A stretch of DNA of 64,000 nucleotides, from contig CP055307.1 of assembly GCA_013374835.1 (NCBI GenBank), positions 74,447-138,446 of the forward strand, in the 5' to 3' direction. This DNA is from Candidatus Woesebacteria bacterium (lineage in GTDB: Bacteria > Patescibacteriota > Microgenomatia > UBA8517). Both the position numbers and the translations under genes were made by a program. Below, in pieces: positions 27,687 to 55,896 of the stretch (within the stretch, counting starts at the first letter, position 1; each line of letters begins with the position of its first letter). A model generated the notes under the pieces. That model was not told where the DNA came from. It saw only the letters and a program-made list of their open reading frames with translations, and searched no databases.

Positions 27687-28003
27687 TCTCGGTTATCCTT
27701 ATTTCATAAGGTTTATGATTGAATACGAACTAATTGTTATCCTAATATATCATAAAGAAGTCTCAAAAGCAAATAAAAAGACTAATCAGGCTAAGAAAAA
27801 TATTAACTTCAAACAAAAAAACCAGATCACTAAAATGAATTAATAGAATTATTTGCCCAATATCTATGAATACAACTACAGCCGTTGTTTAGCCCGCGAT
27901 TATTTTAATAAATTTGAGATTCTAATGATTATAAAATTTTTATAAAAGATATTCTTTACGCAAGAAAAATCTACCGATAGCAAAGAAAGATTGCTTGCGC
28001 GAG

Positions 28004-28089
28004 CGGAGGAGGTGGGATTCGAACCCACGCATCCTTTATCAGGATCAGGTTCTCCAAACCTGTGCAATTGGCCGCTATGCGACTCCTCC
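28004..28089 (-). tRNA. tRNA-Ser (anticodon GGA)
   Basis: Revcomp is GGAGGAGTCGCATAGCGGCC...CAGGTTTGGAGAACCTG...long variable arm...GGTTCGAATCCCACCTCCTCCG. Confidence 0.75.
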
Positions 28090-28148
28090 AAACATATTTT
28101 ATAGACCGTCTCGCACAAGCTTTGAATAAAGCTTGTGCAACTCCTCCC

Positions 28149-28598
28149 TCAAACTAACTTTTTCTTAAAATTAAGCCTTTTTTCCTCAATCTCCTTGGCA
28201 ATTTTCAAAGCCTCTTTTAACATCTGTCTGTCTCTTTTTGTTTTAAGTTTTTTAACAGCGCTTTGGTATTCAAACCAATCACCATTCAAAAAACCAAGCA
28301 TTTCTCCGCTGTCTTTTGTTGACATCAAATAATAAATAAATCTTTGTGCAACAAGCTTATTATTAACGCGCGTAGCACCGCCACTTCTTCCCACTTCGTC
28401 AAGCACCCTTGCCTTTATTCCTCCCTGCTCTGCCATTACCCTAATAGCAGCCCGGACCGAAGATTCGGCCTTTCGAACAGTCGTTTTTGGAAACTCCCAA
28501 TCACCATCCTTCTCATGAACAACAAGAAACCATTCTTTCTTACCCTTCTCTTTCTTAAACACCACAGGCACGGATACCAATAAAAGTTTGTCTTTCAT
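28149..28598 (-). CDS. hypothetical protein (weak, degenerate Nudix-box resemblance)
   Basis: GDWEFPKTTVRKAESSVRAAIRVMAEQGG matches GX5EX7REUXEEXGU only partially. Confidence 0.3.
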   Translation of the reverse strand: MKDKLLLVSVPVVFKKEKGKKEWFLVVHEKDGDWEFPKTTVRKAESSVRAAIRVMAEQGGIKARVLDEVGRSGGATRVNNKLVAQRFIYYLMSTKDSGEMLGFLNGDWFEYQSAVKKLKTKRDRQMLKEALKIAKEIEEKRLNFKKKLV

Positions 28599-28832
28599 GG
28601 CTGTATTTTACACCAAATCAACACTTTTTTCTTCACAAATAATATTTTTATCAACAAAAACAGTTAAACAAAAACTCTGGGTTAAACCGTCTTAAAAATT
28701 TTAATAAATAATTGTTAGCACCGTGGCGAAACCAACCCAAAACAAATAAACAACGCTCCATACAAGAGCAAAAAACCAAAAAAAAGACGTCCAAGAGACT
28801 CAACAAACTTTTGACATCAACCACGATCCACG

Positions 28833-28919
28833 CGGAAGGGGTGGGATTCGAACCCACGAGTCCCGTTATCGAGACATGGTTTTCGAGACCATTCCGTTAG
28901 ACCGCTCCGGCACCCTTCC
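28833..28919 (-). tRNA. tRNA-Ser (anticodon CGA)
   Basis: Revcomp is GGAAGGGTGCCGGAGCGGTC...ATGGTCTCGAAAACCAT...long variable arm...GGTTCGAATCCCACCCCTTCCG. Confidence 0.75.
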
Positions 28920-28921
28920 TC

Positions 28922-28998
28922 TGGTATCCCCAAGAGGACTCGAACCTCCAACCTCCAGATCCGCAATCTGGCGCTCTATCCAATTAAGCTATGGGGAC
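28922..28998 (-). tRNA. tRNA-Arg (anticodon GCG), CCA encoded
   Basis: Revcomp is GTCCCCATAGCTTAATTGGATAGAGCGCCAGATTGCGGATCTGG...GGTTCGAGTCCTCTTGGGGATACCA. 2-nt spacer from tRNA-Ser(CGA). Confidence 0.6.
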
Positions 28999-29034
28999 TC
29001 TACCTATATTTTACCAAAATCATGAAGAAAATAT

Positions 29035-29535
29035 TTATTCGGGAAAAAACCTAGAAATTCTGTCTATACTTTTATCAACTAACGACGGAGAAACAGTCTC
29101 TTCGTGAATATGCTTTTTAAATTCTTCAGCTATTTTCTGCCTTTCACTAGAAGGAAAAAGTATCTCAAGTCTTCCGGGAAATTTATTAATCTCAACTACC
29201 AATATTTCGCTCCCAAATCGGTTAATAAACCAAAACCGTTTTGCTTCATCCCAATGAACTTTCTTGCCCAAAACATCAATACCTTTATTGGTAATTTTAT
29301 ACTCTATGTTCTCAGGCTCAACCGTGGACATAACATAAAAAAGAAAAACTAAAGAAAAAAGTATAAACACAGGAATAATACCCTCAATAAAAAAAAGTAT
29401 TATTCCCAAAAGAACAGCCACTGATACAATAGTTACGTAAAAATCTCGACTTCGTCTTTTAAAAGGCCTCGAAGGAGCTATCCAGCTTAAAACAACAACC
29501 TCTTTTTTATCACCCCCATCCATTCCTAAAATCAT
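29035..29535 (-). CDS. hypothetical membrane protein (2 TM, PH-like C-terminus?)
   Basis: 166-aa ORF with hydrophobic segment AVLLGIILFFIEGIIPVFILFSLVFLFYV. Confidence 0.35.
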   Translation of the reverse strand: MILGMDGGDKKEVVVLSWIAPSRPFKRRSRDFYVTIVSVAVLLGIILFFIEGIIPVFILFSLVFLFYVMSTVEPENIEYKITNKGIDVLGKKVHWDEAKRFWFINRFGSEILVVEINKFPGRLEILFPSSERQKIAEEFKKHIHEETVSPSLVDKSIDRISRFFPE

Positions 29536-29607
29536 TATATATTAAAACAATCCAATTATGCTAGAAGAAGAAGATGCCTACTGGTATAATAGCCTAAGCA
29601 CATTTTT

Positions 29608-29695
29608 GGTAGGGTGGCCGAGTGGCCTAAGGCGACGGTTTGCTAAACCGTTGAGGGGTAAAACTCTCGCGCAGGTTCGAATCCTGTCCCTACCG
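29608..29695 (+). tRNA. tRNA-Ser (anticodon GCT)
   Basis: GGTAGGGTGGCCGAGTGGCC...ACGGTTTGCTAAACCGT...long variable arm...GGTTCGAATCCTGTCCCTACCG. Confidence 0.75.
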
Positions 29696-29701
29696 CAAGC
29701 T

Positions 29702-29791
29702 GGTGAGGTCGCATAGTGGACTAGTGCAGCGGTCTTGAAAACCGCCGTGGTCGTTTTTCGGCCACCGTGGGTTCGAATCCCACCCTCACCG
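29702..29791 (+). tRNA. tRNA-Ser (anticodon TGA)
   Basis: GGTGAGGTCGCATAGTGGAC...GCGGTCTTGAAAACCGC...long variable arm...GGTTCGAATCCCACCCTCACCG. Confidence 0.75.
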
Positions 29792-29800
29792 CAGCAATCT

Positions 29801-30490
29801 TCACGAAGCAATAGTTATTCCCCAGACTACCTTTGCACCCGCTTTTTTCAGGACTTCACCGCACTCACGAATTGTGCTTCCGGTGGTAAGCACATCATCA
29901 AAAACAACCAAACTATCATATTCCTTAAAATTTTTTTTGTACTTATTATTAATTTCAAAAGCACCCCGAAGATTTTTAATCCGTTCTCGTCTCACCAAAC
30001 CAGCTTGTGAACGAGTGTTTTTTGTCTTTATCAAAATATCATCGTCAAATTTCCAACCCATCTCGTAAGCCACCTTCACCCCAATCAACGACGCCTGATT
30101 AAACCCCCTCCACCTTTCCTTCCCAGATTTCATTGGCACAGAAGTAGAAAGCACACTGCCTAAATTAAAAGGATAATTTTTTATATCATTTATACTCCTT
30201 TTTACCAATTCATCAACAATATCATAAGAAAAACTATACTTAAATTTAAGCAGCGCTTTACGAACCACCCCCTCATATCTCCATATAGCAAAAGCTCCGT
30301 CAATTCTTCCCCTCCTATTGCAACTCTTATGGGTCCTCCCCCAATACGAATAATTACCACAATAAATACATTTACAAAAAGCTCTGTCAACTAAACCCAA
30401 GCAAGAATTACAAATATAAAATCCTGAAACGCCGCAATTCAAACATCTTTTGGGGAAAACAAAATCAATTATTCCCATCTTAAGGTACAA
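29801..30490 (-). CDS. comF: ComF family protein (competence; phosphoribosyltransferase fold with N-terminal zinc finger)
   Basis: N-terminal CxxC...CxxC cluster. C-terminal PRTase motif SLVVFDDVLTTGSTI. Confidence 0.7.
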   Translation of the reverse strand: MYLKMGIIDFVFPKRCLNCGVSGFYICNSCLGLVDRAFCKCIYCGNYSYWGRTHKSCNRRGRIDGAFAIWRYEGVVRKALLKFKYSFSYDIVDELVKRSINDIKNYPFNLGSVLSTSVPMKSGKERWRGFNQASLIGVKVAYEMGWKFDDDILIKTKNTRSQAGLVRRERIKNLRGAFEINNKYKKNFKEYDSLVVFDDVLTTGSTIRECGEVLKKAGAKVVWGITIAS

Positions 30491-30529
30491 TATAAAATAT
30501 AAATAAATCTAATTTTACTCTAACACAAA

Positions 30530-30964
30530 ATGCATATTTTCAATAAGCGCGCAAAAAGAAACTATAAAATTCTTGAAACCATAACAGCAGGCATCGTACT
30601 TACCGGAGAAGAAGTAAAATCAGCGCGTACAAACAAAGTAAATCTTGATCAATCCTTTGCAAAAATCATAAACAACGAAGTATTTCTAATTAACGCAGTA
30701 ATCACCACCAAAAATCAGCAATCAAAATCAAAAAAACTGCTCCTTAATAAAAAGGAGATAATTTCCCTCAAAACAAAAATTAAGTCTCACAATTTGACTT
30801 TAATACCCCTAAAAATGTATACTAGGGGACCCTTAATCAAGCTGGAAATAGGCTTAGGAAAAACAAAAAGGAAATTCGAGAAACGCGAATCTCTTAAAAA
30901 AAGAGATATTCAAAGGGATATCGAAAGGGAACTAAAAATTAAAGGGGACGATACAAGGATTTGA
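30530..30964 (+). CDS. smpB: SsrA-binding protein SmpB
   Basis: NKRAKRNYKILETITAGIVLTGEEVKS signature N-terminus. Basic C-terminal tail. Confidence 0.85.
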   Translation: MHIFNKRAKRNYKILETITAGIVLTGEEVKSARTNKVNLDQSFAKIINNEVFLINAVITTKNQQSKSKKLLLNKKEIISLKTKIKSHNLTLIPLKMYTRGPLIKLEIGLGKTKRKFEKRESLKKRDIQRDIERELKIKGDDTRI

Positions 30965-41994: not shown

Positions 41995-44900
41995 ATGAAA
42001 AAAAAGGCAATAAAATTTACCCTCATACAAGCCAGCGTATTCACTTTTTTAATTTTTCTCAGCAAATCTATATATGCACAAACCCCGGTGGACCTAAGAG
42101 ATTTCATTGCAGGACCCGACTTTGTTCCCCATTCTTTAAGCTCTGGAGAACAAATCAGCTTTTCTTCAGAAGGAGATTGTCACGCAATGGGCCAAGCCGT
42201 AAGGCAATACAAAAACGCAAACTACGAACAGTTCTGCATAGGAGCAGATGGTGTTTATAGACAAGAGGATACAAGCTGGGCAATTTCAATTGGAAACAGG
42301 CTCCAAAATGCACACTGTAAGGGCACTCTTGACAAAGCAATTATTACCTCAGACCCAGGATGCACCACCTATACCCCAGGCTCTCAAGTAACAACAGACG
42401 GAGCCTGGTGGGCCCCAGCCGGAATCGGCTCAATGACCACAGGACAATCCTATTCCTACATCACCCACAATCCATGGCAAATAGTAACAATAAACAACAA
42501 TATCCTCCAATCCGGAGGAGGTAAAATCTACTGTGAAATCGAAGAAAGCCCGTATTCAGATAGATATAAATCCCCAAACACCTGTGGATCCACCATCTCC
42601 GTCTCTCTTACCTACTACGACGCCGGTGAATACGAATTCTGCACCGGACTAAAAAACAACGAGCCAGTAATCGCCATGGGCGCAACCTCAGGCCCCGGCT
42701 CAGACGAAAAAATAATCTACATGAAAGGCTGGGGAATAGTGGGTTTCGAATCTCCATTTATGACAGTTGGGCTAATGGGAACGGACAACTATGGAAACAC
42801 AGCCGACCCCTCAGGCTGCACTACACCAGGAGCTTTTGGCCCTGGAGCCTCGGGTGTGCAGTGCGAAGATGAATTTTTCCCTGAATTTCACTCCCTGCGC
42901 CCATACCCTGCGTGTCCAATCCCCCCCGACATTATGGACACAAGCTTTCTCCTCTGCGGAAACGACCTTATAACCCAGGAAACCCTTGAAATAAGATACG
43001 GCGAAGATCTGCCCGATGGAATTTCACTAATTAACTGCACGGAAGAAGAAGAAAATTTAATTTGCAATTACAAAATTACAAATAGAACCATACCAATAAG
43101 AGTAGATCTCTCAGAAGCAGACCTCCCCATCATGGGACTTACCGAAGACCCCTTCTCAACCGAAGGTGATGAACCCTGGCCACACAAAAGAATCCCGGAC
43201 TCAGTTACCCCAGCCCAAAGAATGAACGAATACGTCAGCTGGTACTTAAACGGCACAATAGCAAGAGCCGAAGATCCGTTGCTTGCAGTAACCAACGATT
43301 ATCCCGAAAAACCAGACAATATAAGCGATCCTAAATTCGAAAAAATATTCCGCGACACGAGATTATTAATAAACTTCTCAGGCCCCCTAAGAAAACTTTT
43401 ACCCTGGAGAATCCAAGTAAGAGAAAGAGAGAAACAAATTTTTGAAGCATCCGGCTTTGGAGGCCCCGACGTCGCCGGAAACATCCGCCACAACCAAATT
43501 GTCGGCTGCACGTATGGGTTATCTATACCTAACTTTTGGGACATATTCAACATAGACGAAATCGGAGGAATACCTGGTCCATGCTATGAACCCAAAAAAG
43601 AAAACGACTTTATAATTCCTGATTTATTCCAAAGACAAATACACCGACTTTCCGACTGGCTCGAGGGAGGAGTAAACGAGGAGCTGGACAAATGGAACCG
43701 CCTTCCTCCGTACGACGAAGACATCGGCACCAAATACGAAAATTTTCAAGAATACTGGAAAGAATACAGGCGTTGGCGCGGACAAAGCTGCACACCAAGT
43801 TTGGATCTTGGTGATATACCACTCGATCAAATCCCTGGCATAGGATCAATTTTAGGATCTCTCTTAGACATCGTACCCAACCTTTATCTTTGCTACGACA
43901 ATCCATTAAAATTCAATTATTGGTCAAGCCTCTTTAGCTATATCCCCTTCTCATCAACTGAAGATAGAACCGGATATGCAGAAGGCCACCTGGACACTGC
44001 TCTTACGCAACAACCGCCAAGCGACGCAAATATCACAGACATTAATTTTACACCAAATCCGGGCACAATCCTGCCGGACGACGGAAAAATGAGGTTTCTC
44101 TATTTCCCCCACATGCAGGAAAGCGCAGAACTAGGATATCTGCTTCAGCAAACCTTCCTTACAAAAGGAGAAGGTGGCTTCTCAAATATCAACGAACAAG
44201 GTTACTACAATACAGAGCGCTGTGAATACCTAGACACCAGAAAAAACCCGGGTGACGATCTATACGGCGGCGATTTCGATCAAGAAGGTCTTCCATGGAA
44301 CCAGCCCGTAAACGACGAACGGACAATAGACGGAAACATAACATATTCAGGCACCTTCCAGTGCTCTTTCTATCTTGCAGAGCCGGTTTGCGATGGCATC
44401 GGCTACCCCGGCCAAGTCCACTGTAACACGGACGAGTGTAGACCATATGTTTGTACAGAATCCGGAAACTGGGAACCAGCTTGGGACACGATAACAGGAG
44501 GAGTAGGACAATACCCCTGTAGTGGAACAGCAGGAAATTGCACCTCCTCAAGCACATTCTCGCCACCGGATCCGGGTGTTTGTACAATAAACATAAGCAC
44601 TGCAACATCAATCTATATAGGCACACCAAAGGCAGAAGAAGTCTGGGATAGACTAGTAAACGGAAGCCAGTCGGTCTTCAGAAGAATTTACCCAAAAGTA
44701 GGAGCGGAAAAGCCTGTCGAAGAAATAAAAGACATCCCGGCAGAAGCCAAGGCAAGCTACTCCTCAGAAGATGGAAACGTCCAAGTCTTTGCAGGAAATC
44801 CAGCTGCAGCAAGGCCAGGCTCAAACGCAAAAATATTCTTCCCCCATATCGGCTCAATCTACGACTACTTTCTAAAAGGCATTCAAAAAGCCCTCAGACC

Positions 44901-45543
44901 AAAAGACATTCAAACCATCCAATCAGGCCCGTCATCCACCCCGCCTCCGCCTCAAAACACAGACTGCCCCATAAACTGCAACCAAGACGTACCAGATTCA
45001 GAAATTCCAACAGCCTATTTAGGAACATTCAAACAAAACATAATTAGGCTTGCAAACGACTTGTACGCAGGCACTGGTAGAAACTTCGCAAAAGAATGCT
45101 ACAACGACGTAGTAAAAAGATCGCTAAACGCGGGCTATAACCCAGCGTTTGTTATCACAATATGGCTTGCAGAAAGCGGGGCAAGCAACTACAACCAAGC
45201 TTGTACTACCCAAGACTTTGGGATAAACAGGCCAGAAATGGCGGCAGATTTTAACGAACAAATAAGATGGTTCTTTAATCTTACAAACATCTGGAACACC
45301 ACATATCCGGAATGCATAGACTGTAATATCTCAACAGGAGAATGTACCAATGGCTATACATATATGGAAAACTGGACACACCTTTTCAAATCTGAAGACC
45401 CAATAAACGCCACAGGAGAATGCGTTCCAGATCCGCCCTCACAAAGCAGGCTTGCAGACTACCAAAACATTTGGAATTGGGTTGCGCCCGCATGCCCATT
45501 TCCTCAAACGCCGTTTCACAACACATGTCCAAATATAAATTAA
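41995..45543 (+). CDS. large secreted Cys-rich protein (1182 aa) with C-terminal lysozyme-like / lytic transglycosylase-like region
   Basis: Signal peptide. ~45 Cys across the length. C-terminal block AGYNPAFVITIWLAESGASNYNQACTTQDFGINR resembles the SLT E-S-G catalytic motif. Confidence 0.45.
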   Translation: MKKKAIKFTLIQASVFTFLIFLSKSIYAQTPVDLRDFIAGPDFVPHSLSSGEQISFSSEGDCHAMGQAVRQYKNANYEQFCIGADGVYRQEDTSWAISIGNRLQNAHCKGTLDKAIITSDPGCTTYTPGSQVTTDGAWWAPAGIGSMTTGQSYSYITHNPWQIVTINNNILQSGGGKIYCEIEESPYSDRYKSPNTCGSTISVSLTYYDAGEYEFCTGLKNNEPVIAMGATSGPGSDEKIIYMKGWGIVGFESPFMTVGLMGTDNYGNTADPSGCTTPGAFGPGASGVQCEDEFFPEFHSLRPYPACPIPPDIMDTSFLLCGNDLITQETLEIRYGEDLPDGISLINCTEEEENLICNYKITNRTIPIRVDLSEADLPIMGLTEDPFSTEGDEPWPHKRIPDSVTPAQRMNEYVSWYLNGTIARAEDPLLAVTNDYPEKPDNISDPKFEKIFRDTRLLINFSGPLRKLLPWRIQVREREKQIFEASGFGGPDVAGNIRHNQIVGCTYGLSIPNFWDIFNIDEIGGIPGPCYEPKKENDFIIPDLFQRQIHRLSDWLEGGVNEELDKWNRLPPYDEDIGTKYENFQEYWKEYRRWRGQSCTPSLDLGDIPLDQIPGIGSILGSLLDIVPNLYLCYDNPLKFNYWSSLFSYIPFSSTEDRTGYAEGHLDTALTQQPPSDANITDINFTPNPGTILPDDGKMRFLYFPHMQESAELGYLLQQTFLTKGEGGFSNINEQGYYNTERCEYLDTRKNPGDDLYGGDFDQEGLPWNQPVNDERTIDGNITYSGTFQCSFYLAEPVCDGIGYPGQVHCNTDECRPYVCTESGNWEPAWDTITGGVGQYPCSGTAGNCTSSSTFSPPDPGVCTINISTATSIYIGTPKAEEVWDRLVNGSQSVFRRIYPKVGAEKPVEEIKDIPAEAKASYSSEDGNVQVFAGNPAAARPGSNAKIFFPHIGSIYDYFLKGIQKALRPKDIQTIQSGPSSTPPPPQNTDCPINCNQDVPDSEIPTAYLGTFKQNIIRLANDLYAGTGRNFAKECYNDVVKRSLNAGYNPAFVITIWLAESGASNYNQACTTQDFGINRPEMAADFNEQIRWFFNLTNIWNTTYPECIDCNISTGECTNGYTYMENWTHLFKSEDPINATGECVPDPPSQSRLADYQNIWNWVAPACPFPQTPFHNTCPNIN

Positions 45544-47199: not shown

Positions 47200-49302
47200 T
47201 CAAATAGGTAAATTGTCTATAACCATAACAACCTTATCCATCAAATAAGCAGCTACTCTTTGATAAGGGTTCCTCTTCAACTTTCTGGCCCCTATTTCAT
47301 TAGCCTCATCTACGAACTTCCTAAAATGCGCCGCATTCTCACCAGACGGATATTTAACCCTTAATCTATAAGAACTCTTAAACGCAGTCCTTGCAGCTAC
47401 AACATAAACCCCTTTTACAATATTTTCTCGATATTTTCTATCTACTTCCAATTCACTAAAAGCGTCCGCCAACCCCCTCCAAGTTTTTATTCGACCTCTC
47501 ACTATAGCCTCATTAATCGTTTTTGCTCTGTCAATAGCGCCAAAAATATATTTAGAAAACGGCGTTTCGGAAACCTCATTAAAATCTAAAGTCTCAAGTT
47601 TCATATTCGGCCTAATATGTAAAATTTTTCTACCGTTTCCTAATAAAACATCTCGAAAAGTTATCTCCTTTTTTCCTTCCTTTTTGGCTCCCATATACGA
47701 AAACGCATCCTTGTATAATTCTTTTGGCAAAACATTTGACTTTTCACCCCTAAAAAGACGACCAGAAATCACATGCCGCTTTTTCTTTCTTAGTACGCTT
47801 GCCGACCAAGAACCAAATGGCACACTCCATTCTGACTCCCCATCTTTGGCTTTTTGCTCTAACCTCTCTTGGGGGTGCATCGAAATCCTTATTGGCAAAG
47901 ACATTAACCTAAAATCCATAGGAGGAATGCGGCTATTATTGTTTCGTTTATACCTCGAATCTTCATATTCAACTACATTGCCCTGTGTAAAGAAATTCCA
48001 AGCAGCTCGAGCTACATCGTCAGCATTTATTTCAACATCATCTCCGTTTTCGATTTTCTCCCGAACAACCCCATGTCTTGATAGCCACAAAGCCACATTG
48101 GAAACTAAAGTATCAAGGTCACTAAGTTCTTTAAAATCAAAAACCGTCCCACCGTTCTTAAACTTGCCATAAACAGCATCGTTCCTTTGAGTTTCAGTTG
48201 AGTTCAAATCCCTATCAAAAAATTCATTCAAATCAACCCCATCAACAACAATGGCTGTATATAAAGAAACGGCGTGCATAAAACCCGGAACTCTCCACAC
48301 CTGCCTACCCTGTACTTCATCGCATCCAAACAAAAATGAAATTTCATCTTTTGTTAATTCACCAATTGGATTGCTTGGATATAAATCATCAAAACTAAAT
48401 GTATTTACCTTGTGATAAAGAGCACGTGCTAATTTATATCTTATTTCCCACCATTTCTTTGTATCACCCTCAAGATCCTTCACCATAATATTTGGATTTA
48501 CACCTTCTACTGGAACTTTGGCGTCTTTTTCCAATCTCCTAAAAGAATTTCTAAAATCCTCCGGGGTTTCAAGAGTTTCTTTTCTTTCTTCCCACTGTCT
48601 GCGCTCCTGTCGCACTCTTTCCTCTTCTATCATTCTCACCCTCCTCTGTTCAGCAGCAATCTCTTGCAACAGCGCCGCCTCCACACCTCTCACATCCCGA
48701 CTAGAAGGTCTTGCAACTTCAGCGGACATATCACCAGTTAAACTATTAATGTTATATCTCTCTTCAAACCAACCTGTTGGAACAAAATTAAAATCCTCAA
48801 ATCTGTCAAGCGCATTAGCTTTCATTATTGGACCAAATTCTTTACTTACCCGCTTTCGCTCCATATCCAGTTTATTCACCAAACTCTGAACAGCAGCATC
48901 AAAAATCCCCACATATTTCTCTCCTTTTTCTTTGTCTAAAGCTTCTTCAAACTCTTGAGCAACAGAGATTATTTCCCGAAAATATTCGCCCCAATCAACC
49001 TTTCCACTATTATTAAAAATTTCTGTTTTTTCTACAATCTTAGATGCAAAGTCTTCAAAACCAGGAGCTGATTCTAAATACTTTCCCAACAATTCTTGAC
49101 CTTTTTTAATCCAACTGTTTAATTCACTCAATTTATGTGGGTCTAGAGAACGATTTTCTTTAATTTCTTTCTTGTAAGTTTCAATGTCTCGAATTATTTC
49201 CTTAGCAGTTACCTCATGCGCACCCTCTCCCCGCTCAGGAGCTCCACCCATACTCAAATCGTCTGGTCTGAAATGAATTTCAGGACTCATAGTATCATCC
49301 AT
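47200..49302 (-). CDS. large hypothetical cytoplasmic protein (700 aa) encoded antisense to the surrounding locus
   Basis: No TM and no signal peptide. Charged and coiled-coil-rich N-terminal half. No motif recognised. Confidence 0.45.
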   Translation of the reverse strand: MDDTMSPEIHFRPDDLSMGGAPERGEGAHEVTAKEIIRDIETYKKEIKENRSLDPHKLSELNSWIKKGQELLGKYLESAPGFEDFASKIVEKTEIFNNSGKVDWGEYFREIISVAQEFEEALDKEKGEKYVGIFDAAVQSLVNKLDMERKRVSKEFGPIMKANALDRFEDFNFVPTGWFEERYNINSLTGDMSAEVARPSSRDVRGVEAALLQEIAAEQRRVRMIEEERVRQERRQWEERKETLETPEDFRNSFRRLEKDAKVPVEGVNPNIMVKDLEGDTKKWWEIRYKLARALYHKVNTFSFDDLYPSNPIGELTKDEISFLFGCDEVQGRQVWRVPGFMHAVSLYTAIVVDGVDLNEFFDRDLNSTETQRNDAVYGKFKNGGTVFDFKELSDLDTLVSNVALWLSRHGVVREKIENGDDVEINADDVARAAWNFFTQGNVVEYEDSRYKRNNNSRIPPMDFRLMSLPIRISMHPQERLEQKAKDGESEWSVPFGSWSASVLRKKKRHVISGRLFRGEKSNVLPKELYKDAFSYMGAKKEGKKEITFRDVLLGNGRKILHIRPNMKLETLDFNEVSETPFSKYIFGAIDRAKTINEAIVRGRIKTWRGLADAFSELEVDRKYRENIVKGVYVVAARTAFKSSYRLRVKYPSGENAAHFRKFVDEANEIGARKLKRNPYQRVAAYLMDKVVMVIDNLPI

Positions 49303-49438: not shown

Positions 49439-50416
49439 ATGCACGATCAATTTTCAACATTCGAACAGCATCCGGTGCCACAAAACATCAGTTCATACCA
49501 GTTTAGGCTCATAGGAGACATGACCATCAAGCAATTCTTTCAGCTTGCAGGCGGGGCTTTAATTGCGCTTCTTTTTTACGCCTCCCCTTTCCCGGGTTTT
49601 ATCAAATGGCCGCTTATCATCTTTTTTGCACTGGCAGGAGCAGCCTTTGCCTTCCTTCCTCTTGAAGAACGTCCACTAGAAGAATGGGTAAAAGCATTTT
49701 TCCGATCCGTTTATTCACCTACAATCTATGTCTGGCAAAAAACACAAACCCCCCCCATTATTTTCGCCCAACAAGTAGCTCCAGTAGCAACCGAAGAAAA
49801 CGCACAAGAATCGGGTCAGCCACAAGACCCCGCCCAATCAAACCTTGATAAAGCAGAAAAAAAATTCTTTGACAAATTCACAAATCTTTTTTCAATATCC
49901 CCAGCAAGCCCACCCAAACAAACGGTCTCAATCCCACCCCAGCCAGTCAGCAACCCACCACAGCCAGAAACAACAACCGTTTCCATTAATGCACACCAAG
50001 GGTCAAAACCCAGCTTTAATATAAGCGTAAACGAAAACGAAAAAATAGCGACAAAAAACGCACCACAAACACTCATTGCACAACAAATCCAAAAAGCCCA
50101 AGCCGCACAATTTAGCCCGGAGTCAGCACCGCCCACCCCCCCAACACAGCCCAATATAGTTGTTGGCCAAACAATAAGCACCGAAGGAAAAATTATAGAA
50201 GGTGTAATACTCGAAATAAAAGACGCTCAAGGCCGTCCAGTACGCGCCCTCAAAAGCAACAAAGCAGGACACTTCCTAATAGTCACACCACTAAATAACG
50301 GCAAATATCAAATTACAGCCGAAAAGGAAGGCTTTGCATTCGACCCGATTGAAATAGAGGCAAACGGACAAATCATTCAACCTATCGCCATAAAAGCAAG
50401 GTCTCAACCAAACTAA
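49439..50416 (+). CDS. VirB3/PrgI-like small membrane module fused to a Pro/Gln-rich linker and a carboxypeptidase-regulatory-like beta-sandwich domain
   Basis: N-terminal ~100 aa with two TM helices directly upstream of VirB4. C-terminal GKIIEGVILEIKDAQGRPVRALKSNKAGHFLI...YQITAEKEGF, a transthyretin-like fold. Confidence 0.4.
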   Translation: MHDQFSTFEQHPVPQNISSYQFRLIGDMTIKQFFQLAGGALIALLFYASPFPGFIKWPLIIFFALAGAAFAFLPLEERPLEEWVKAFFRSVYSPTIYVWQKTQTPPIIFAQQVAPVATEENAQESGQPQDPAQSNLDKAEKKFFDKFTNLFSISPASPPKQTVSIPPQPVSNPPQPETTTVSINAHQGSKPSFNISVNENEKIATKNAPQTLIAQQIQKAQAAQFSPESAPPTPPTQPNIVVGQTISTEGKIIEGVILEIKDAQGRPVRALKSNKAGHFLIVTPLNNGKYQITAEKEGFAFDPIEIEANGQIIQPIAIKARSQPN

Positions 50417-50417
50417 A

Positions 50418-51119
50418 ATGCAAAATCCCATCAAAAAAATACCGCTCCTAAACATTCCGGACAAGCCCCTTGTCGGCACAACTCAAGATCACATTCCCGT
50501 TGCTGAAATTGAAAACGACATGGTTCTTCTCAAAGACGGTGGTGCGGCAATAATTCTAGAAACCACATCCCTTAACTTCGGACTTCTGTCTGAACGCGAA
50601 CAAGAAGCAGTAGTTGCAGCTTTTGCGGCACTCATCAATAGCCTTAGTTTTCCAATCCAGATTTTGGTAAGAACCGAAAAAAAAGACGTATCAAAATATC
50701 TTAAATCAATAGAAGAACATCTTCCAAATGTAAAAAGCGAAAAACTAAAAGGATTAATGATCGGCTATAAAAATTTCATCTCAGAAACCATAAAGAAAAA
50801 AAATGTGCTTGGAAAAAGGTTTTTTATAGTAATTCCCTTCTCTCCATTTGAATTAGGCGTTAATGCCAAATCGCTGTTGGATTTCAAAAAAAAGAAAAGG
50901 ACAATACCATACTCCAAGGAATACGTTATCAAAAAAATCCAAACCTCTCTCTACCCCAAAAGAGATCATTTAATCAGACAGGGCACCCGCCTAGGTTTAA
51001 AAATGCGACAACTAAACAACGAAGAAATAATTAAACTTTACTACAATATCTATAATCCCGATTTCGAAGCCATACAAGTAAAAGAAAAGGAGGAGGAAAT
51101 CAAAAATGAATCTATTTAA
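50418..51119 (+). CDS. VirB4/TraE-type ATPase, N-terminal domain encoded as a separate ORF
   Basis: IPVAEIENDMVLLKDGGAAIILETTSLNFGLLSEREQEAVVAAFAALINSLSFPIQILVRT matches the N-terminus of Gram-positive VirB4 homologs. 14-nt overlap with the next ORF. Confidence 0.55.
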   Translation: MQNPIKKIPLLNIPDKPLVGTTQDHIPVAEIENDMVLLKDGGAAIILETTSLNFGLLSEREQEAVVAAFAALINSLSFPIQILVRTEKKDVSKYLKSIEEHLPNVKSEKLKGLMIGYKNFISETIKKKNVLGKRFFIVIPFSPFELGVNAKSLLDFKKKKRTIPYSKEYVIKKIQTSLYPKRDHLIRQGTRLGLKMRQLNNEEIIKLYYNIYNPDFEAIQVKEKEEEIKNESI

Positions 51120-53016
51120 AGCCAGAGACAACATAAATCAAAAACACACAAATACCCAAATGCTAAATCCCAAAATTCCCGCCCCAACAAATCAAGGTCA
51201 AGAGGTTCGAAAGCAAAAATTTGCCGATCCCATAGCAGCGCTCAAAGAAATGCCGCTTCTTGACGTCCTTGCTCCAAACAAAATAGAGCTTGATTTCGAT
51301 TATATAGAAATAGACGGAGTATATTTCAGAACACTTTTTGTTGCAGGATACCCGCGCTTTGTCGTCCCCGGATGGATGGAGCCGATCATAAATTTCGACC
51401 ACAGCCTTGATATTTCATTCTTTATTTATCCTGTCGAGGGAAGAACAATCCTCGATGAATTAAGAAGAAAAATCACAGAAATGGAGGCTGAAATTGCAAC
51501 AGACATCCAAAGAGGAAAAATAATAAACCCAGCAACCGAAGCAAAACTGGAAGACGCCAAAATGCTTCAAGAACAGCTCGTTAGAGGAGCCGAGCGCTTC
51601 TTCGAATATTCTTTCTATATTACAATCCCGGCAACTTCTCTCGAAGCCTTAAATAGCATCACAAAAAGAGTAGAATCCACCTTATCCTCTCTTTTAATCG
51701 TTGCAAAACACGCTGCCCTTGATCACGAAAGAGGTTTTCTCTCAACAGCGCCCTTTGGCCGCGATATGCTTTCAATAACAAGAAACATGGACACAACATC
51801 TCTTGCCACCACCTTTCCGTTTACAACAGCCGAGCTAAGTAGCGACGAAGGAATTTTATACGGAATAAACTCTCAAAACGAGTCGTTTATTATATTCGAC
51901 CGATTCACTCTTGAAAATTCAAACATGACCGTTTTTGCTACTTCAGGCGCAGGAAAAAGCTTTTTCGTAAAACTAGAATCTCTTCGCTCTTTGATGTTCG
52001 GCACAGAAATAATAGTAATAGATCCGGAAAACGAATATCAAACACTCTGTGAAGCCGTAGGAGGAGAGTATATTAAATTCTCATACTCAAGCCCCTCAAA
52101 AATAAATCCGTTTGATCTCGCTCAAATATACGAAAAAGGCGAAAACCAGCTAAATCTCAAGCTTCTGTCTCTTCATTCATTGTTCAAAATAATAATGGGT
52201 GAATTAAACGCATCCCAAGAAGCCCTTCTTGATAGAGCTCTTATAAACGCCTACCGCGCAAAAGGCATTACTCCCGATCCCGAAACACAAACCAAAGAAC
52301 CGCCTCTTATTGAAGACCTCTATAAAGCTCTTATTGGAATGGAAACCTCTGAAGCCCTAGACCTCGCCGCACGCATTGAAAAATTTGTAAGAGGAAGCTA
52401 CGCGGGCGTCTTTGACAAACACACAAACATAGATATAAAAAATCCCTTCACCGTCTTTTCAATTAGAGATATTGAAGACAGCATCCGCCCAATATCAATG
52501 TTTATAATTCTTGACTTCATCTGGACAAAAATAAGACGCAACATAAAAAAACGCATCCTTGTTGTTGACGAGGCTTGGCACATGATGCGCTATCCTGATA
52601 CTGCTCAATTTCTCTGGTCTATTGTCAAAAGAGCCCGTAAATACTATCTTGGCCTGACAACAATCACCCAAGATGTTGAAGATTTTCTAGCCCAAGACAT
52701 TGGCAAAGCAGTAGTCACAAACTCAGCTCTAAGGCTCCTTCTCAAACAAAGCCCGGCTGCAATAGACAAGGTTTCGGAAACATTCTACTTATCACAGGGC
52801 GAAAAACAGCTCCTTCTCGGTGCAAATATAGGCGAAGGTATCCTCTTCGCAGGCCCCCACCATGCACCAATAAGAATTGTCGCATCAAACGAAGAGTATC
52901 GATTAATAACAACTAATCCAAAAGACCTTGAGAAAAATCCAGCCTCACCCGAGCTTACACCGGTCGAGTCTGCAAAAATCATAGGCTATTCAAAAGAAGA
53001 AGGAAATATTGTCTAA
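51106..53016 (+). CDS. VirB4/TraE/CagE-type T4SS ATPase (core and ATPase domains)
   Basis: Walker A FATSGAGKSFF. VIDPENEY. Walker B ILVVDEAWHMM. Perfect SD AAGGAGGAGG 8 nt upstream, inside the preceding ORF. Confidence 0.75.
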   Translation: MNLFKARDNINQKHTNTQMLNPKIPAPTNQGQEVRKQKFADPIAALKEMPLLDVLAPNKIELDFDYIEIDGVYFRTLFVAGYPRFVVPGWMEPIINFDHSLDISFFIYPVEGRTILDELRRKITEMEAEIATDIQRGKIINPATEAKLEDAKMLQEQLVRGAERFFEYSFYITIPATSLEALNSITKRVESTLSSLLIVAKHAALDHERGFLSTAPFGRDMLSITRNMDTTSLATTFPFTTAELSSDEGILYGINSQNESFIIFDRFTLENSNMTVFATSGAGKSFFVKLESLRSLMFGTEIIVIDPENEYQTLCEAVGGEYIKFSYSSPSKINPFDLAQIYEKGENQLNLKLLSLHSLFKIIMGELNASQEALLDRALINAYRAKGITPDPETQTKEPPLIEDLYKALIGMETSEALDLAARIEKFVRGSYAGVFDKHTNIDIKNPFTVFSIRDIEDSIRPISMFIILDFIWTKIRRNIKKRILVVDEAWHMMRYPDTAQFLWSIVKRARKYYLGLTTITQDVEDFLAQDIGKAVVTNSALRLLLKQSPAAIDKVSETFYLSQGEKQLLLGANIGEGILFAGPHHAPIRIVASNEEYRLITTNPKDLEKNPASPELTPVESAKIIGYSKEEGNIV

Positions 53017-53017
53017 C

Positions 53018-55381
53018 ATGGCATTTAAAATTCCAGAAAGAAAAGAAGGATTAATAAGGCTTAGGAACCAACTGCTCAAGGCAGCAGAATCCGCATCGAA
53101 AAGCAGCGCTCTTCCTATAGAACTGACAGAGCTTTTAAACAAAGCTTGGCTTATCACCAACAGCATAGATATCAATCCTGAAATTTTAAACAAACTTCCT
53201 CAATCTGCTCAAGTCGACCTTGCTATAAAGATGTCTAAAATAGCTGCCTCTCAACTTAACATTATGATAACAACCCCCTCGCTCTTTGAAATGCTGTTAG
53301 ACGAAAATAGAAAAAAAACAACATCCCCGGACCTCCAATCAGATCTAAAAGAAGCTTTAAAAAATCTCGAAAAAATCATTAAAGACCCTCAAAAATATGG
53401 TATTGACCCAAAAGAAGCACTAACCATTGCTAGCAAACTTCTTAATAACCCGGATCTTGACCCAAAAGATAAAGAAAATCTTGACGAGTTAATAAACGAG
53501 GTTCTGGAGGCAACAAAAACAGTTCAAAATATCGAAGATATCAGTTTTATTCTTTCCCCCGAGCAAAAACAAATAGAAGAAAAAATAAATATTTTTACTA
53601 ACGCCACCGATCAAGGAAAAAACGTACAAAACGAAAAACTGGAACTCGCACAAGTAGCTGGTTTAAGCTCAATACTGCTAAGCCAAAAACAAAATCTCAT
53701 TTCAAAAGCCAAAGTCTTCATAAAAACAACCTATAACTTAATGTACCAAAGACTGATTTCAAAAGGAGGTGCTGCTGCAGCCATCGCTTTTCTCGCCGAT
53801 AAAGCAATCAAAACTGTTGCAAGAGTTGCAAGCATGGCAAAAAGAGCCACTCAAGGAAATATTGGAGACTTAGCGCTACTTAGTGTTTTTTTTGCCGGTT
53901 TTTTAATAGGCGGTCCAATCGGCGCAGCACTCATGCTTTTTGCAATAAGTCCAAGGTTCAGAAAAATAGTAATAACAGGCCTTTTTATATCTCTCACACT
54001 TATCCTAACAGAAATGCTTATTGCTCTTTTGGTTATCATTATTTCTATCTCAATAATTCTTTTTATAATCAATTCAGGAGCCTATATAGTTCCCCAAGGA
54101 TCACCGCTTCAAGGAGAAGAATTAACCCAAGGTATAGTAGCATCGGGAACCTGTCCCCTAGTTTCCAGTTGTCCTAAAATCGACTCAGGCTCCTATAATC
54201 CGGAAAACGAAACGGGTCACGGAAGCAACTCTTATTGGGGTTCTGCAACAAATGCCTGTACTTATTCCATCCCCATTGACCCAATGGGGGGTTGTCTTGG
54301 CCCCGATCCTACAAACGGAAGAAATTTCTGCTCTTCTGCTCCAACAAGATGCTCTGTTTACGGATACGCTGCAGACGTGGTTGATTGCAATGGGGTTTAT
54401 GCAGACGTAGCTCTCCCCTATCTTTGTGATCCTGGAAGCGAAACGTGTAGCCCCTTAACTTGGCGCTTTATTGACGGATGGTACAACTGCCAAGGAGCAA
54501 GCGTCCCAAATAAAGCATCCTGCACAAGAGAAGGGTGGGGATATGGTGCAATCTTTGAGGCAATAGGAAACGGACACATTTGGCGCATCTACCTTAACCA
54601 CATTAGCCAACTTCCCTCGGGCAAAACTTATCAATCAGGCTCTGTAATCGCCCAGCTCACCAACGAACTCATTCCAGGACATCTCCATGTCGAGCTTAAC
54701 ATCGATGGTTTTGCAGTTAAACCGGACTTTCTCTGCTCGGGAGAAGGCTCTGGAATAACACCTCCCGTAAATACAGACCTTGAAGGTTGGTACGTCACAG
54801 TAAATCCGGAAAATCTTATAGCATCAAACCCGCTTTCAGAAAACGAGGTTGGTATTAATTCCTGTACTTGGATGAGCTCAAAAGGTCTATCTGCTGCCAT
54901 TAATGCCAATTTTTACTTAAACGCAAACACTCCAATAGGCCACGCAGGTTATAATGGCAATTTTACAAATTACCCACCAGATGAGGGTTTTTCAGCCTAC
55001 AACTTTAAAACTCTCGTTGTGACAGAGAGCAACCAAGCTCAAATTGTAAAACACTCAAACTTGCCGGACAATCTTACAGGCCAAGGTTATAAACTTGCTG
55101 TTACAGGAGTTGCATATAATAACATTACAGGTTCAGGCCCCAAAACAGTCGTTGGAATCAAAAATAATCGCGTCTATTTAATAATATTAAGAAGCGCAAC
55201 GGCAGTTCAAGTACAACAGTTTATGGAATCTGTATTGGGAGTAGACGACGGATTCTTTCTTGATAGCGGCGCATCAACAACTCTATGTAACTCAAACGGC
55301 ATAGTCTTTTCCGGCCAGAATCCACCAAGAAATATTCCCTCGCACATAGGAATTACAAGCGGTAGTTTTATCAGGTTATAA
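53018..55381 (+). CDS. membrane-anchored cell-wall hydrolase: M23 peptidase-like plus phosphodiester-glycosidase (NAGPA/DUF2233)-like domains
   Basis: Long Lys/Glu-rich cytoplasmic N-terminus, TM helices (~300-360), GHIWRIYLNH...GHLHVELN (M23 HxH), then C-terminal ...FFLDSGASTTL, like the LDGGGSS block of phosphodiester glycosidases. Start taken at ATG 53018; the track uses TTG 53009. Confidence 0.5.
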   Translation: MAFKIPERKEGLIRLRNQLLKAAESASKSSALPIELTELLNKAWLITNSIDINPEILNKLPQSAQVDLAIKMSKIAASQLNIMITTPSLFEMLLDENRKKTTSPDLQSDLKEALKNLEKIIKDPQKYGIDPKEALTIASKLLNNPDLDPKDKENLDELINEVLEATKTVQNIEDISFILSPEQKQIEEKINIFTNATDQGKNVQNEKLELAQVAGLSSILLSQKQNLISKAKVFIKTTYNLMYQRLISKGGAAAAIAFLADKAIKTVARVASMAKRATQGNIGDLALLSVFFAGFLIGGPIGAALMLFAISPRFRKIVITGLFISLTLILTEMLIALLVIIISISIILFIINSGAYIVPQGSPLQGEELTQGIVASGTCPLVSSCPKIDSGSYNPENETGHGSNSYWGSATNACTYSIPIDPMGGCLGPDPTNGRNFCSSAPTRCSVYGYAADVVDCNGVYADVALPYLCDPGSETCSPLTWRFIDGWYNCQGASVPNKASCTREGWGYGAIFEAIGNGHIWRIYLNHISQLPSGKTYQSGSVIAQLTNELIPGHLHVELNIDGFAVKPDFLCSGEGSGITPPVNTDLEGWYVTVNPENLIASNPLSENEVGINSCTWMSSKGLSAAINANFYLNANTPIGHAGYNGNFTNYPPDEGFSAYNFKTLVVTESNQAQIVKHSNLPDNLTGQGYKLAVTGVAYNNITGSGPKTVVGIKNNRVYLIILRSATAVQVQQFMESVLGVDDGFFLDSGASTTLCNSNGIVFSGQNPPRNIPSHIGITSGSFIRL

Positions 55382-55389
55382 TAAAAGAG

Positions 55390-55896
55390 ATGAAAAATTT
55401 TATTTTACAGATAATTCAAAAGCGCGCTAAACTGCTTGTATTCCTAATATTTCTAATTTCTTTGGTTTTACTAATTACCCTACTATCAAATCGTCCAAAA
55501 GAATCTCCTACAACAAGCGCTCCCCCCACTTCAGCGTCTATTTCAATTGAATACGGCGACCTCCCAATGCCTCAAATATTTCCTAAATCCGGCAAATTAA
55601 ACTGGGGAGAAACAAAAAACGCAATAACACTTAAATTCGATAAAACAATCAACAAATCAAGCGTTCAAATAAGCTCTCAGCCTCCAAAAAATTTCAAAAT
55701 ATCCACGCTTCCTGATGATCTCGGAAGGATTATTATCACTCCCCTAACACCATGGGAAACTGGAAAAACTTATAAAATTACGATTTTTAAAGGCATAAAA
55801 ACCGCCTTGCAAGAACCTTTAATGCTTAAAGAGGATATAAATCTCGAGTATGAAATACTTTCTCCAACAAGGCCAAACTACGACAGACCAGCCTAA
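55390..55896 (+). CDS. small bitopic membrane protein with an Ig-like extracytoplasmic domain
   Basis: N-terminal TM LLVFLIFLISLVLLITLL, then a Ser/Thr/Pro linker. Last gene of the locus. Confidence 0.35.
   Translation: MKNFILQIIQKRAKLLVFLIFLISLVLLITLLSNRPKESPTTSAPPTSASISIEYGDLPMPQIFPKSGKLNWGETKNAITLKFDKTINKSSVQISSQPPKNFKISTLPDDLGRIIITPLTPWETGKTYKITIFKGIKTALQEPLMLKEDINLEYEILSPTRPNYDRPA

Follow-up and report, generated by a model that had tools for sequence, protein, structure and literature searches.

A predicted membrane-anchored wall hydrolase with divergent M23-like and NAGPA domains, encoded beside virB4 in a Candidatus Woesebacteria type IV secretion system cluster

The DNA considered here is a stretch of 64,000 nucleotides (referred to below as the window, with all positions counted within it) from Candidatus Woesebacteria (Patescibacteria, Microgenomatia), a bacterium with an ultra-small genome. 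Within a cluster of type IV secretion system (T4SS) genes, directly downstream of a gene for a VirB4-type ATPase, lies a gene whose product is predicted to be anchored in the membrane and to carry two domains of wall-active type: a Cys-rich, divergent M23/LytM-fold domain and, C-terminal to it, a NAGPA/DUF2233 phosphodiester-glycosidase domain. An earlier interpretation made from the letters alone (the sequence-only reading) had proposed a membrane-anchored bifunctional wall hydrolase serving the T4SS, and the present analysis followed up that proposal.

The open reading frame is real: it is listed at 53009..55381 on the + strand with a TTG start and 790 amino acids, whilst the first in-frame ATG, at 53018, gives a protein of 787 amino acids. 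An 89%-identical orthologue (P0001) is annotated from the same methionine and is also 787 amino acids long, and residues are numbered from this ATG throughout. The stop codon of the VirB4 gene ends at 53016, leaving one nucleotide before the ATG, and the sequence GAAGGA is found ~13 nucleotides upstream of the ATG; scanning the surrounding DNA for promoters and terminators yielded nothing informative. All three motifs quoted in the sequence-only reading occur in the protein, GHIWRIYLNH at residues 519-528, GHLHVELN at 554-561 and FFLDSGASTTL at 745-755, although the C-terminal region was only approximately described as ending in the last of these, as 32 further residues follow it. The whole protein has 14 cysteines, of which 12 lie between residues 379 and 573. 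The features of the gene are as follows.

53018..55381, + strand: whole coding sequence, predicted membrane-anchored two-domain wall hydrolase (787 amino acids from the ATG)
53018..53854, + strand: N-terminal region, residues 1-279, charged, all-helical and probably cytoplasmic (charge count, AlphaFold2)
53855..54097, + strand: hydrophobic membrane region, residues 280-360 (hydrophobicity, AlphaFold2)
54140..54748, + strand: Cys-rich divergent M23/LytM-fold domain, residues 375-577, with 12 Cys (AlphaFold2, Foldseek, profiles)
54218..54220, + strand: His401, in the invariant GHGSNxYW motif, candidate substitute for the first zinc ligand (109/109 sequences)
54362..54376, + strand: G449-Y-A-A-D453, putative counterpart of the M23 HxxxD strand (G449 and D453 each 109/109)
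54599..54601, + strand: His528 in YLNH, equivalent of the M23 catalytic His (YaHl motif; LytM H260 equivalent; 109/109)
54680..54694, + strand: H555-L-H557-V-E559, M23 HxH block (109/109 each)
54773..55378, + strand: NAGPA/DUF2233 phosphodiester-glycosidase domain, residues 586-787, with the Pfam match at 623-780 (Pfam, profile, Foldseek)
55262..55276, + strand: D749-S-G-A-S753, counterpart of the NAGPA DGGGS loop, human D286-S290 (profile alignment)
55328..55330, + strand: Arg771, likely equivalent of the phosphate-binding Arg, human R316 (aligned with the Arg of 3ohg and 5h3k)

Profile comparisons and structure prediction agree that the middle domain is a divergent member of the M23/LytM fold. 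A word-indexed homologue search returned only 5 matches with the single sequence and 2 with a profile, and an exhaustive HMMER search of cluster representatives with residues 361-581 was needed; this gave 114 matches, 42 of them at E≤1e-10, which identifies the domain as a real, conserved module. The link to Pfam family PF01551 (Peptidase_M23) is transitive, running through these relatives: 22 of 39 domain-only relatives match it at E≤0.1 (best E=1.8e-6), no other family recurs, and the matches fall exactly on the domain homologous to residues 375-577. In one relative (P0106) the match on the homologous region scores 31.3 bits, above the cut-off of 28.7; in another (P0048) it spans profile positions 16-96, and P0071 and P0041 match more weakly. 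When a profile of 39 family domain sequences (alignment A2) was searched against the PDB, 10 of the 12 top matches were M23/LytM structures, with 6muk/3slu at E=0.0011 followed by SpoIIQ, LysTt72, TagE and ShyA, and the alignments placed the family's yltHl over lyaHl and tHvHiE over pHLHyE. An AlphaFold2 model of residues 370-580 has a predicted local distance difference test score (pLDDT) of 93.3 and a predicted template-modelling score (pTM) of 0.91. Foldseek comparison of this model with the PDB returned M23/LytM proteins for all of the top 46 matches, at probabilities of 0.5-1.0 (1.0 for the top ones), including StM23, lysostaphin, LytM, the EnvC LytM domain, Csd1-3, ShyA, zoocin A, phi29 gp13 and LECT2; the alignments cover ~130 columns, with template-modelling scores, normalised to the target, of up to 0.53. 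Further support, and support only, comes from an hhalign comparison of A2 with the lysostaphin catalytic domain: residues 484-570, the C-terminal two-thirds of the domain, were aligned, with H528 on the His of YMH and H555/H557 on HLH. A phmmer search of the PDB with the whole protein gave chance matches only (haloacid dehalogenase phosphatases, leucine-rich repeat kinases), rejected as spurious. The M23-like block recognised in the sequence-only reading thus belongs to a true M23/LytM fold, albeit one that in this protein lies below Pfam detection.

Conservation in the domain was counted in an alignment of 109 sequences, whose members are ~30-50% identical. Invariant in all 109 are H401, G402, Y406, G449, D453, W482, H528, H555, H557, E559 and C573; of six conserved core cysteines, 379, 414, 426, 438 and 445 are nearly invariant and 573 is invariant. 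The HxH block stands as the sequence-only reading had it, H555-L-H557 aligning with the M23 motif (the pHLHyE of 6muk/3slu) and with SpoIIQ. The other quoted motif needs to be divided: the conserved histidine is H528, part of YLNH and matched to the M23 catalytic His (A2 profile against the PDB; lyaHl and YMH motifs), whilst the His of GHIW, H520, is not conserved. A CHAP or NlpC/P60 cysteine peptidase in which the GHIW His would be catalytic was considered and rejected on this ground and because the fold matches are all to M23; an M15/VanX-type LAS enzyme was likewise rejected, there being no matches of that type.

The remaining M23 motif, H-x3-D, is absent as written: its aspartate is present as Asp453 but the histidine position is occupied by Gly449. 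We take D453 as the Asp of HxxxD from the order of residues and from a predicted strand: residues 452-456 form a beta-strand in the AlphaFold2 model and the elements after D453 follow in the same order as those after HYGVD in lysostaphin, the formal alignment covering 484-570 only. His401 lies 52 residues upstream, in an N-terminal extension to which nothing in the aligned portion of M23 structures corresponds, and we infer that it may supply the missing zinc ligand, with the invariant glycine making room for it. That D453, H528, H555, H557 and E559 are strictly invariant at 30-50% identity is the pattern expected of a working metal site.

The family membership of the C-terminal domain, also proposed in the sequence-only reading, is sound on sequence and model comparison alike. 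Pfam PF09992 matches residues 623-780 at E=1.9e-10 and 41.7 bits (cut-off 25), over profile positions 2-169 of 169. A profile of 12 NAGPA modules from the family (A4), searched against the PDB, found 3ohg (DUF2233), 5h3k (Slr0280) and vertebrate NAGPA (6pku, 6pky, 6pki and 6pkg), with the LDgGgsttl loop and a downstream Arg in register; a single-sequence phmmer search of the PDB with the region gave chance matches only. In the full-length AlphaFold2 model the region has pLDDT mostly >90, and Foldseek against the PDB with that model placed 5h3k first (5.8e-8), then 6u11 (1.6e-7) and 6pkg/6pki/6pku (5e-7 to 1e-5), all at a probability of 1.0. The domain therefore resembles known NAGPA/DUF2233 proteins (the human uncovering enzyme, Bacteroides 3OHG and Synechocystis Slr0280, 5H3K) in fold, Asp, loop Ser and Arg, but differs from them in its DSGAS loop and in sharing one polypeptide, encoded in a T4SS operon, with a membrane-anchored M23-like domain. 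Of the expected Asp/Gly core, Asp749 and the middle Gly are in place and the two outer glycines are replaced. The DSGAS variant is shared with the 89%-identical orthologue, and 6 of the 11 other NAGPA modules in the family have DGGGS; the Arg771 position is conserved in 7 of the 12 modules. A structural study from 2026 describes the DGGGS loop (human 286-290) as strictly invariant from bacteria to man and reports that D286 and R316 of human NAGPA are required for catalysis (PMC13474241). The loop in the Woesebacteria protein may thus mean reduced or altered activity, and full activity of this copy is uncertain. Counterparts of catalytic residues are nevertheless found on alignment in both domains; that the protein is membrane-anchored, two-domain and of wall-hydrolase type is supported, and its description as bifunctional is, given the non-canonical M23 site and atypical NAGPA loop, plausible rather than established.

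N-terminal to these domains, no Pfam or NCBIfam match was found anywhere in residues 1-360. Residues 1-245 contain 33 Lys and Arg and 34 Asp and Glu, residues 1 to ~280 are modelled as all-helical at low confidence (pLDDT ~50), and the region can be aligned among close relatives only. In the membrane region a glycine-zipper-like segment comes first and a long hydrophobic helix second (hydrophobic segments 280-312 and 316-360; helices 284-309 and 312-354 in the AlphaFold2 model), and the end of the region, ILFIINSGAYIVP, is kept across the family, distant relatives included. A cytoplasmic N-terminus is suggested by the DnaJ J-domain fused at the N-terminal end in 4 of 30 relatives (P0017, P0038, P0091 and one other), whilst the many cysteines of the M23-like domain and the wall-active character of the second modules suggest that the C-terminal part is extracellular. 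The long charged N-terminus and hydrophobic helices of the sequence-only reading are thus confirmed, with its cytoplasmic side probable and the number of passes ambiguous. The J-domain fusion would itself be an unusual link, of an Hsp70 co-chaperone domain with a membrane-anchored wall enzyme.

The gene is part of a + strand T4SS cluster spanning ~35.9 to 55.9 kb of the window. In order, this comprises an array of VirB2-like pilins, two polytopic membrane proteins, a protein of 1182 amino acids, a minus-strand gene for 700 amino acids, PrgI/VirB3-like, TraC-like and VirB4 genes, the gene under study and finally a gene for a protein with a transmembrane segment and a Big_5 domain; beyond the cluster lie the convergent dnaN and dnaA, followed by rnpA, yidC and jag. 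The nearest neighbours are as follows.

49439-50416, + strand: PrgI/VirB3-like gene (Pfam)
50418-51119, + strand: TraC-like gene (label from comparison with the closest-relative locus)
51106-53016, + strand: VirB4-type ATPase (Pfam)
55390-55896, + strand: gene of 168 amino acids, N-terminal transmembrane segment and Big_5 immunoglobulin-like domain, 8 nucleotides downstream of the gene under study and the true last gene of the cluster

The gene had been said to close the locus; it does belong to the cluster but is next to last in it. The Big_5 gene co-occurs with the hydrolase gene in most loci (including L003, L004, L007, L008 and L012), before the convergent dnaN. It occupies the slot held after PrgK in pCF10 by the VirB8-like PrgL, although the domain type differs.

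Related loci are numbered L001 onwards, and a search with an alignment of 7 family sequences contributed to them. The closest public relative, Candidatus Woesebacteria UBA1430, has the same gene order at 89-95% identity, and the order PrgI, TraC-like, VirB4, family member, (Big_5), dnaN, dnaA recurs in L001/2/9, L003, L004, L007, L008, L011 (the complete Woesebacteria Ch104a genome), L012 and L013; in L006 at least VirB4 abuts the family gene. Adjacency to virB4 is seen in L001-L004, L006-L009 and L011-L013, often as an overlap (for example in L003 and L006), so that placement directly after VirB4 is conserved in at least 8 independent lineages. This is the slot of PrgK, and the proposed role alongside the dedicated hydrolases of Gram-positive T4SSs fits it well. 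The exception is P0041 (L005), without VirB4 nearby. Across loci, VirB4 is 60-77% identical, DnaN 29-49% and the hydrolase core 28-50% (the range for the M23-like domain of distant loci against that of the protein studied here), whilst the hydrolase N-terminus is unalignable. No Pfam match to a relaxase or coupling protein was found in the T4SS cluster, and a mobile conjugative element was rejected as an explanation, as no relaxase was found and the origin-proximal chromosomal synteny is conserved across lineages.

What varies within the family is the second module. NAGPA is found in 11-13 members, Peptidase_M14 in 4, VanY in 2 and SLT_3 or SLT in 3-4 (P0041, P0106, P0050 and P0028), and most members have none; in most of them the M23-like domain is the only recognisable enzymatic domain. 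All of the second modules found in relatives act on cell walls. The combination of M23-like and NAGPA domains, which the sequence-only reading thought unusual, turns out to be the commonest two-domain form, in 13 of 116 sequences, and is a recurrent rather than a singular fusion. In P0041 (L005, GCA_964373575.1, 8001-10490) the M23-like domain is flanked by SLT and Peptidase_M14, in a context of genes for Alba, a GGR-type reductase, a LAGLIDADG protein and a prenyltransferase and no VirB4 nearby. Such surroundings appear to be archaeal, possibly of DPANN type, and would point to the module having passed from one ultra-small symbiont to another.

Taken together, we interpret the protein as a counterpart of PrgK in function and architecture, the cell-wall hydrolase dedicated to a chromosomal T4SS of Gram-positive (MPF-FATA-like) type, with a probability of roughly 0.68; the activity of both domains is a prediction from sequence and models. 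PrgK of Enterococcus faecalis plasmid pCF10 has an intracellular N-terminus, a transmembrane helix at 254-274 and then LytM, SLT and CHAP domains; its gene follows that of the VirB4 homologue, and the VirB8-like PrgL is its binding partner; only its SLT domain is active in vitro (PMC11323569). Shared with PrgK (and more loosely with TraG of pIP501, CwlT of ICEBs1 and TcpG of pCW3) is the PrgI–VirB4–hydrolase gene order, and with PrgK itself a probably intracellular N-terminus of ~250-280 amino acids, a predicted membrane anchor, and a LytM/M23 fold first with a second wall-active domain behind it. The two differ in that the second module here is NAGPA, with no SLT, CHAP or NlpC/P60 Pfam domain in the protein; in that its LytM fold keeps the Asp, the catalytic His and HxH where PrgK has lost both HxxxD and HxH; and in its Cys-rich insertion with 12 Cys and its origin-proximal chromosomal location. 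A tblastn search of 72,556 plasmid records with residues 370-580 gave no match at E≤0.01, and no direct profile comparison with PrgK was made. With M23/LytM enzymes (LytM, lysostaphin, ShyA, Csd3, StM23) the protein shares the fold, the Asp-bearing strand, the catalytic His in a YxH context and the HxHxE block, but it has an invariant Gly where HxxxD supplies the first zinc ligand, an invariant His upstream in the family-specific GHGSNxYW, and ~80 extra residues with three conserved putative disulfides.

Under this interpretation the protein would be co-expressed with VirB4, possibly by translational coupling across the gap of one nucleotide. Its helical N-terminus would stay in the cytoplasm, the hydrophobic segment would anchor it beside the channel, and the extracellular part, probably disulfide-stabilised to judge from the 14 cysteines and the types of fold, would sit at the wall. 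There the M23-fold domain could cut peptide cross-links, with a zinc site of Asp453 and His557 and with His528 and His555 as catalytic residues, His401 probably supplying the ligand normally given by the HxxxD His. The NAGPA module might cut a sugar-1-phosphate linkage; a speculative example is the N-acetylglucosamine-1-phosphate (GlcNAc-1-P) bridge that ties secondary wall polymers to N-acetylmuramic acid. Together the two domains would open a local gap in the wall, of the cell itself and/or of a host cell, for the pilus or channel, and relatives would keep the M23-like core whilst swapping the second module between NAGPA, M14, VanY, SLT or nothing.

Several observations weigh against this interpretation. 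The protein itself has no match to PF01551 even at E≤10, and an NCBIfam scan was likewise without M23; all 109 sequences have Gly449 in place of the canonical HxxxD His, although D453 is retained. In the NAGPA loop, DSGAS in place of DGGGS, the Asp, middle Gly and Ser are kept but the positions of human G287 and G289 have become Ser and Ala, and the human enzyme loses its activity with G289A and is kept from leaving the endoplasmic reticulum with G287A (PMC13474241). The membrane region has two long hydrophobic helices rather than a clean odd number of passes, so that the topology is ambiguous. Of the analogues studied by experiment the closest is the LytM domain of PrgK, a degenerate regulatory domain free of metal (PMC11323569). 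Finally, dnaN/dnaA always neighbour the T4SS genes, and gene order by itself does not tell a T4SS role apart from a housekeeping role near the origin.

The state of the active site leads to one alternative that we consider unlikely: that the M23-like domain is a non-catalytic LytM scaffold, a wall-binding module or a regulator, tuning the second module or tethering the T4SS to peptidoglycan. Precedents are EnvC/NlpD/DipM, Bacillus subtilis SpoIIQ and, in the analogous T4SS slot, PrgK, whose degenerate LytM domain down-regulates its SLT domain (PMC11323569). The change of the HxxxD His to Gly449 in 109/109 sequences speaks for such a reading, and the LytM domains of SpoIIQ and EnvC are among the sequence and fold matches. 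SpoIIQ is a membrane-anchored protein with an extracellular LytM fold that lacks the HxxxD His, and it forms part of the SpoIIIA–SpoIIQ channel, a trans-envelope structure resembling a secretion system. It is matched by the family profile (3tuf_B/3uz0_B), with similarity limited to the C-terminal half of the domain; unlike the present protein, SpoIIQ is a scaffold with neither a second catalytic module nor a compensating invariant His. Degenerate LytM domains, however, lose several active-site residues, as PrgK has lost both of its motifs, whereas here five such residues and the additional His401 are strictly invariant across ~30%-identical sequences. Most members also have no second catalytic module to be regulated, which leaves the M23-like domain as their sole recognisable enzymatic domain, but separate proteins could be the targets.

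Where the wall in question lies is a further point. We think it equally improbable that the protein is mainly offensive, a host-directed enzyme at the contact between epibiont and host, its C-terminal modules adapted to host wall chemistries and NAGPA stripping GlcNAc-1-P-linked polymers. Such a role would accord with the shuffling of wall-active C-terminal domains on a constant core and with the polymorphic, effector-like C-terminus encoded by a neighbouring gene (described below), and the T4SS of Saccharibacteria is essential for epibiotic growth and is without relaxase and coupling protein (PMC10633639; PMC12102498). The hydrolase core, moreover, diverges much faster than VirB4, but DnaN diverges about as fast as the core, and the hydrolase rate is therefore not exceptional. 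The protein appears to be anchored in the membrane of the producer, with only ~430 residues outside, and revealed no cleavage or secretion signal that would release it; no host is known for this Woesebacteria lineage, and the same data are more simply accounted for if a PrgK-type enzyme remodels the cell's own wall. Much less probable still is a housekeeping autolysin or division hydrolase that merely adjoins T4SS genes near the replication origin. In every bacterial locus the block does have dnaN/dnaA, rnpA, yidC and jag beside it, M23/LytM factors commonly act in cell division, and P0041 is not near any VirB4. Yet the gene adjoins virB4 or overlaps it, on the same strand, in each of the bacterial loci examined, another gene separates it from dnaN, which is convergent, and the protein copies the architecture of PrgK; a survey from 2025 also treats the origin-proximal block as a T4SS cluster (PMC12102498).

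The same survey had already described the origin-proximal chromosomal T4SS and pilin arrays of Patescibacteria and the absence of relaxase and coupling protein from most clusters, and found VirB1 homologues mostly not near virB4 in most classes, Paceibacteria excepted, the authors suggesting that other enzymes take their place (PMC12102498). In Candidatus Southlakia epibionticum, homologues of a peptidase and a lysozyme encoded just downstream of virB4 are essential for epibiotic growth (PMC12102498). The cluster of strain ML1 (SEML1_0006-0019) is likewise a chromosomal Patescibacteria T4SS with a pilin array and no relaxase or coupling protein, but it belongs to class Saccharimonadia rather than Microgenomatia, and no NAGPA module is reported in it (PMC10633639; PMC12102498). 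With VirB1 homologues mostly not near virB4 and the present family conserved directly after it, the family fits the gap for Microgenomatia and is most likely the wall-opening enzyme not previously found for their T4SS. The general biology is already published and the role of the protein as expected; what deserves notice is the putatively rebuilt invariant site, the module swapping and the candidate for the VirB1 gap. A broader proposal, of a previously unrecognised, Patescibacteria-centred M23 branch in which the first zinc ligand has shifted from the HxxxD strand to the invariant His of a disulfide-stapled N-terminal extension, and which provides the missing VirB1 function of Microgenomatia T4SSs and bears host-matched 'warheads' on a constant core, among them NAGPA to strip GlcNAc-1-phosphate-linked secondary polymers and so give the pilus or channel access to peptidoglycan, is tentative and in our view doubtful as a whole.

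Much of bacterial diversity belongs to the Patescibacteria, and in the one system tested so far epibiotic life depends on their T4SS. The family is a concrete, conserved candidate for a VirB1-type role in Woesebacteria, Gottesmanbacteria and relatives, one that standard M23 models miss. The invariant Gly at the position of the zinc His, together with a remote invariant His, raises the question, open to direct testing, of the ways in which LAS-type metal sites may be rebuilt, and the exchange of second modules could help to show which bonds of the wall are important where epibiont and host meet. Were the M23-like domain inactive, the family would extend the theme of regulatory LytM domains known from PrgK and EnvC.

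Other parts of the window merit brief description. The pilin array consists of about ten VirB2-like paralogues (PF18895; 35942-40068 and 41644-41976, + strand) with two transmembrane segments each, and two of them (35942-36673 and 37092-37847) have Cys-rich N-terminal extensions with 14 and 20 Cys; such arrays have already been reported for Microgenomatia (PMC12102498). The protein of 1182 amino acids (41995-45543, + strand) has an N-terminal signal anchor and 36 Cys and no Pfam match, and may be a surface or adhesin component. The gene for 700 amino acids (47200-49302, minus strand), also without a Pfam match, encodes a protein whose N-terminal ~240 amino acids are 58% identical to the UBA1430 orthologue (L001:4071-6278, minus strand) and whose C-terminal ~450 are unrelated to it, whilst the genes around it are 85-96% identical to their UBA1430 counterparts. 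Polymorphic effectors or toxins show this pattern, in which the N-terminus is kept and the C-terminus exchanged, and on its sequence the protein can be likened to them. At 28003-31331 lie four tRNA-Ser genes, one tRNA-Arg gene and a tmRNA gene (30944-31331, tag ADKQSTPAYAGNYAFA), ordinary chromosomal content that confirms that the window is not a mobile element. Among the related loci, L012 (CAZOVJ010000002.1) and L013 (CAZCXU010000001.1) come from metagenome-assembled genomes labelled 'uncultured Gammaproteobacteria', but both have the Patescibacteria-type gene order and VirB4 proteins 61-77% identical to that encoded in the window, and the labels are probably wrong.

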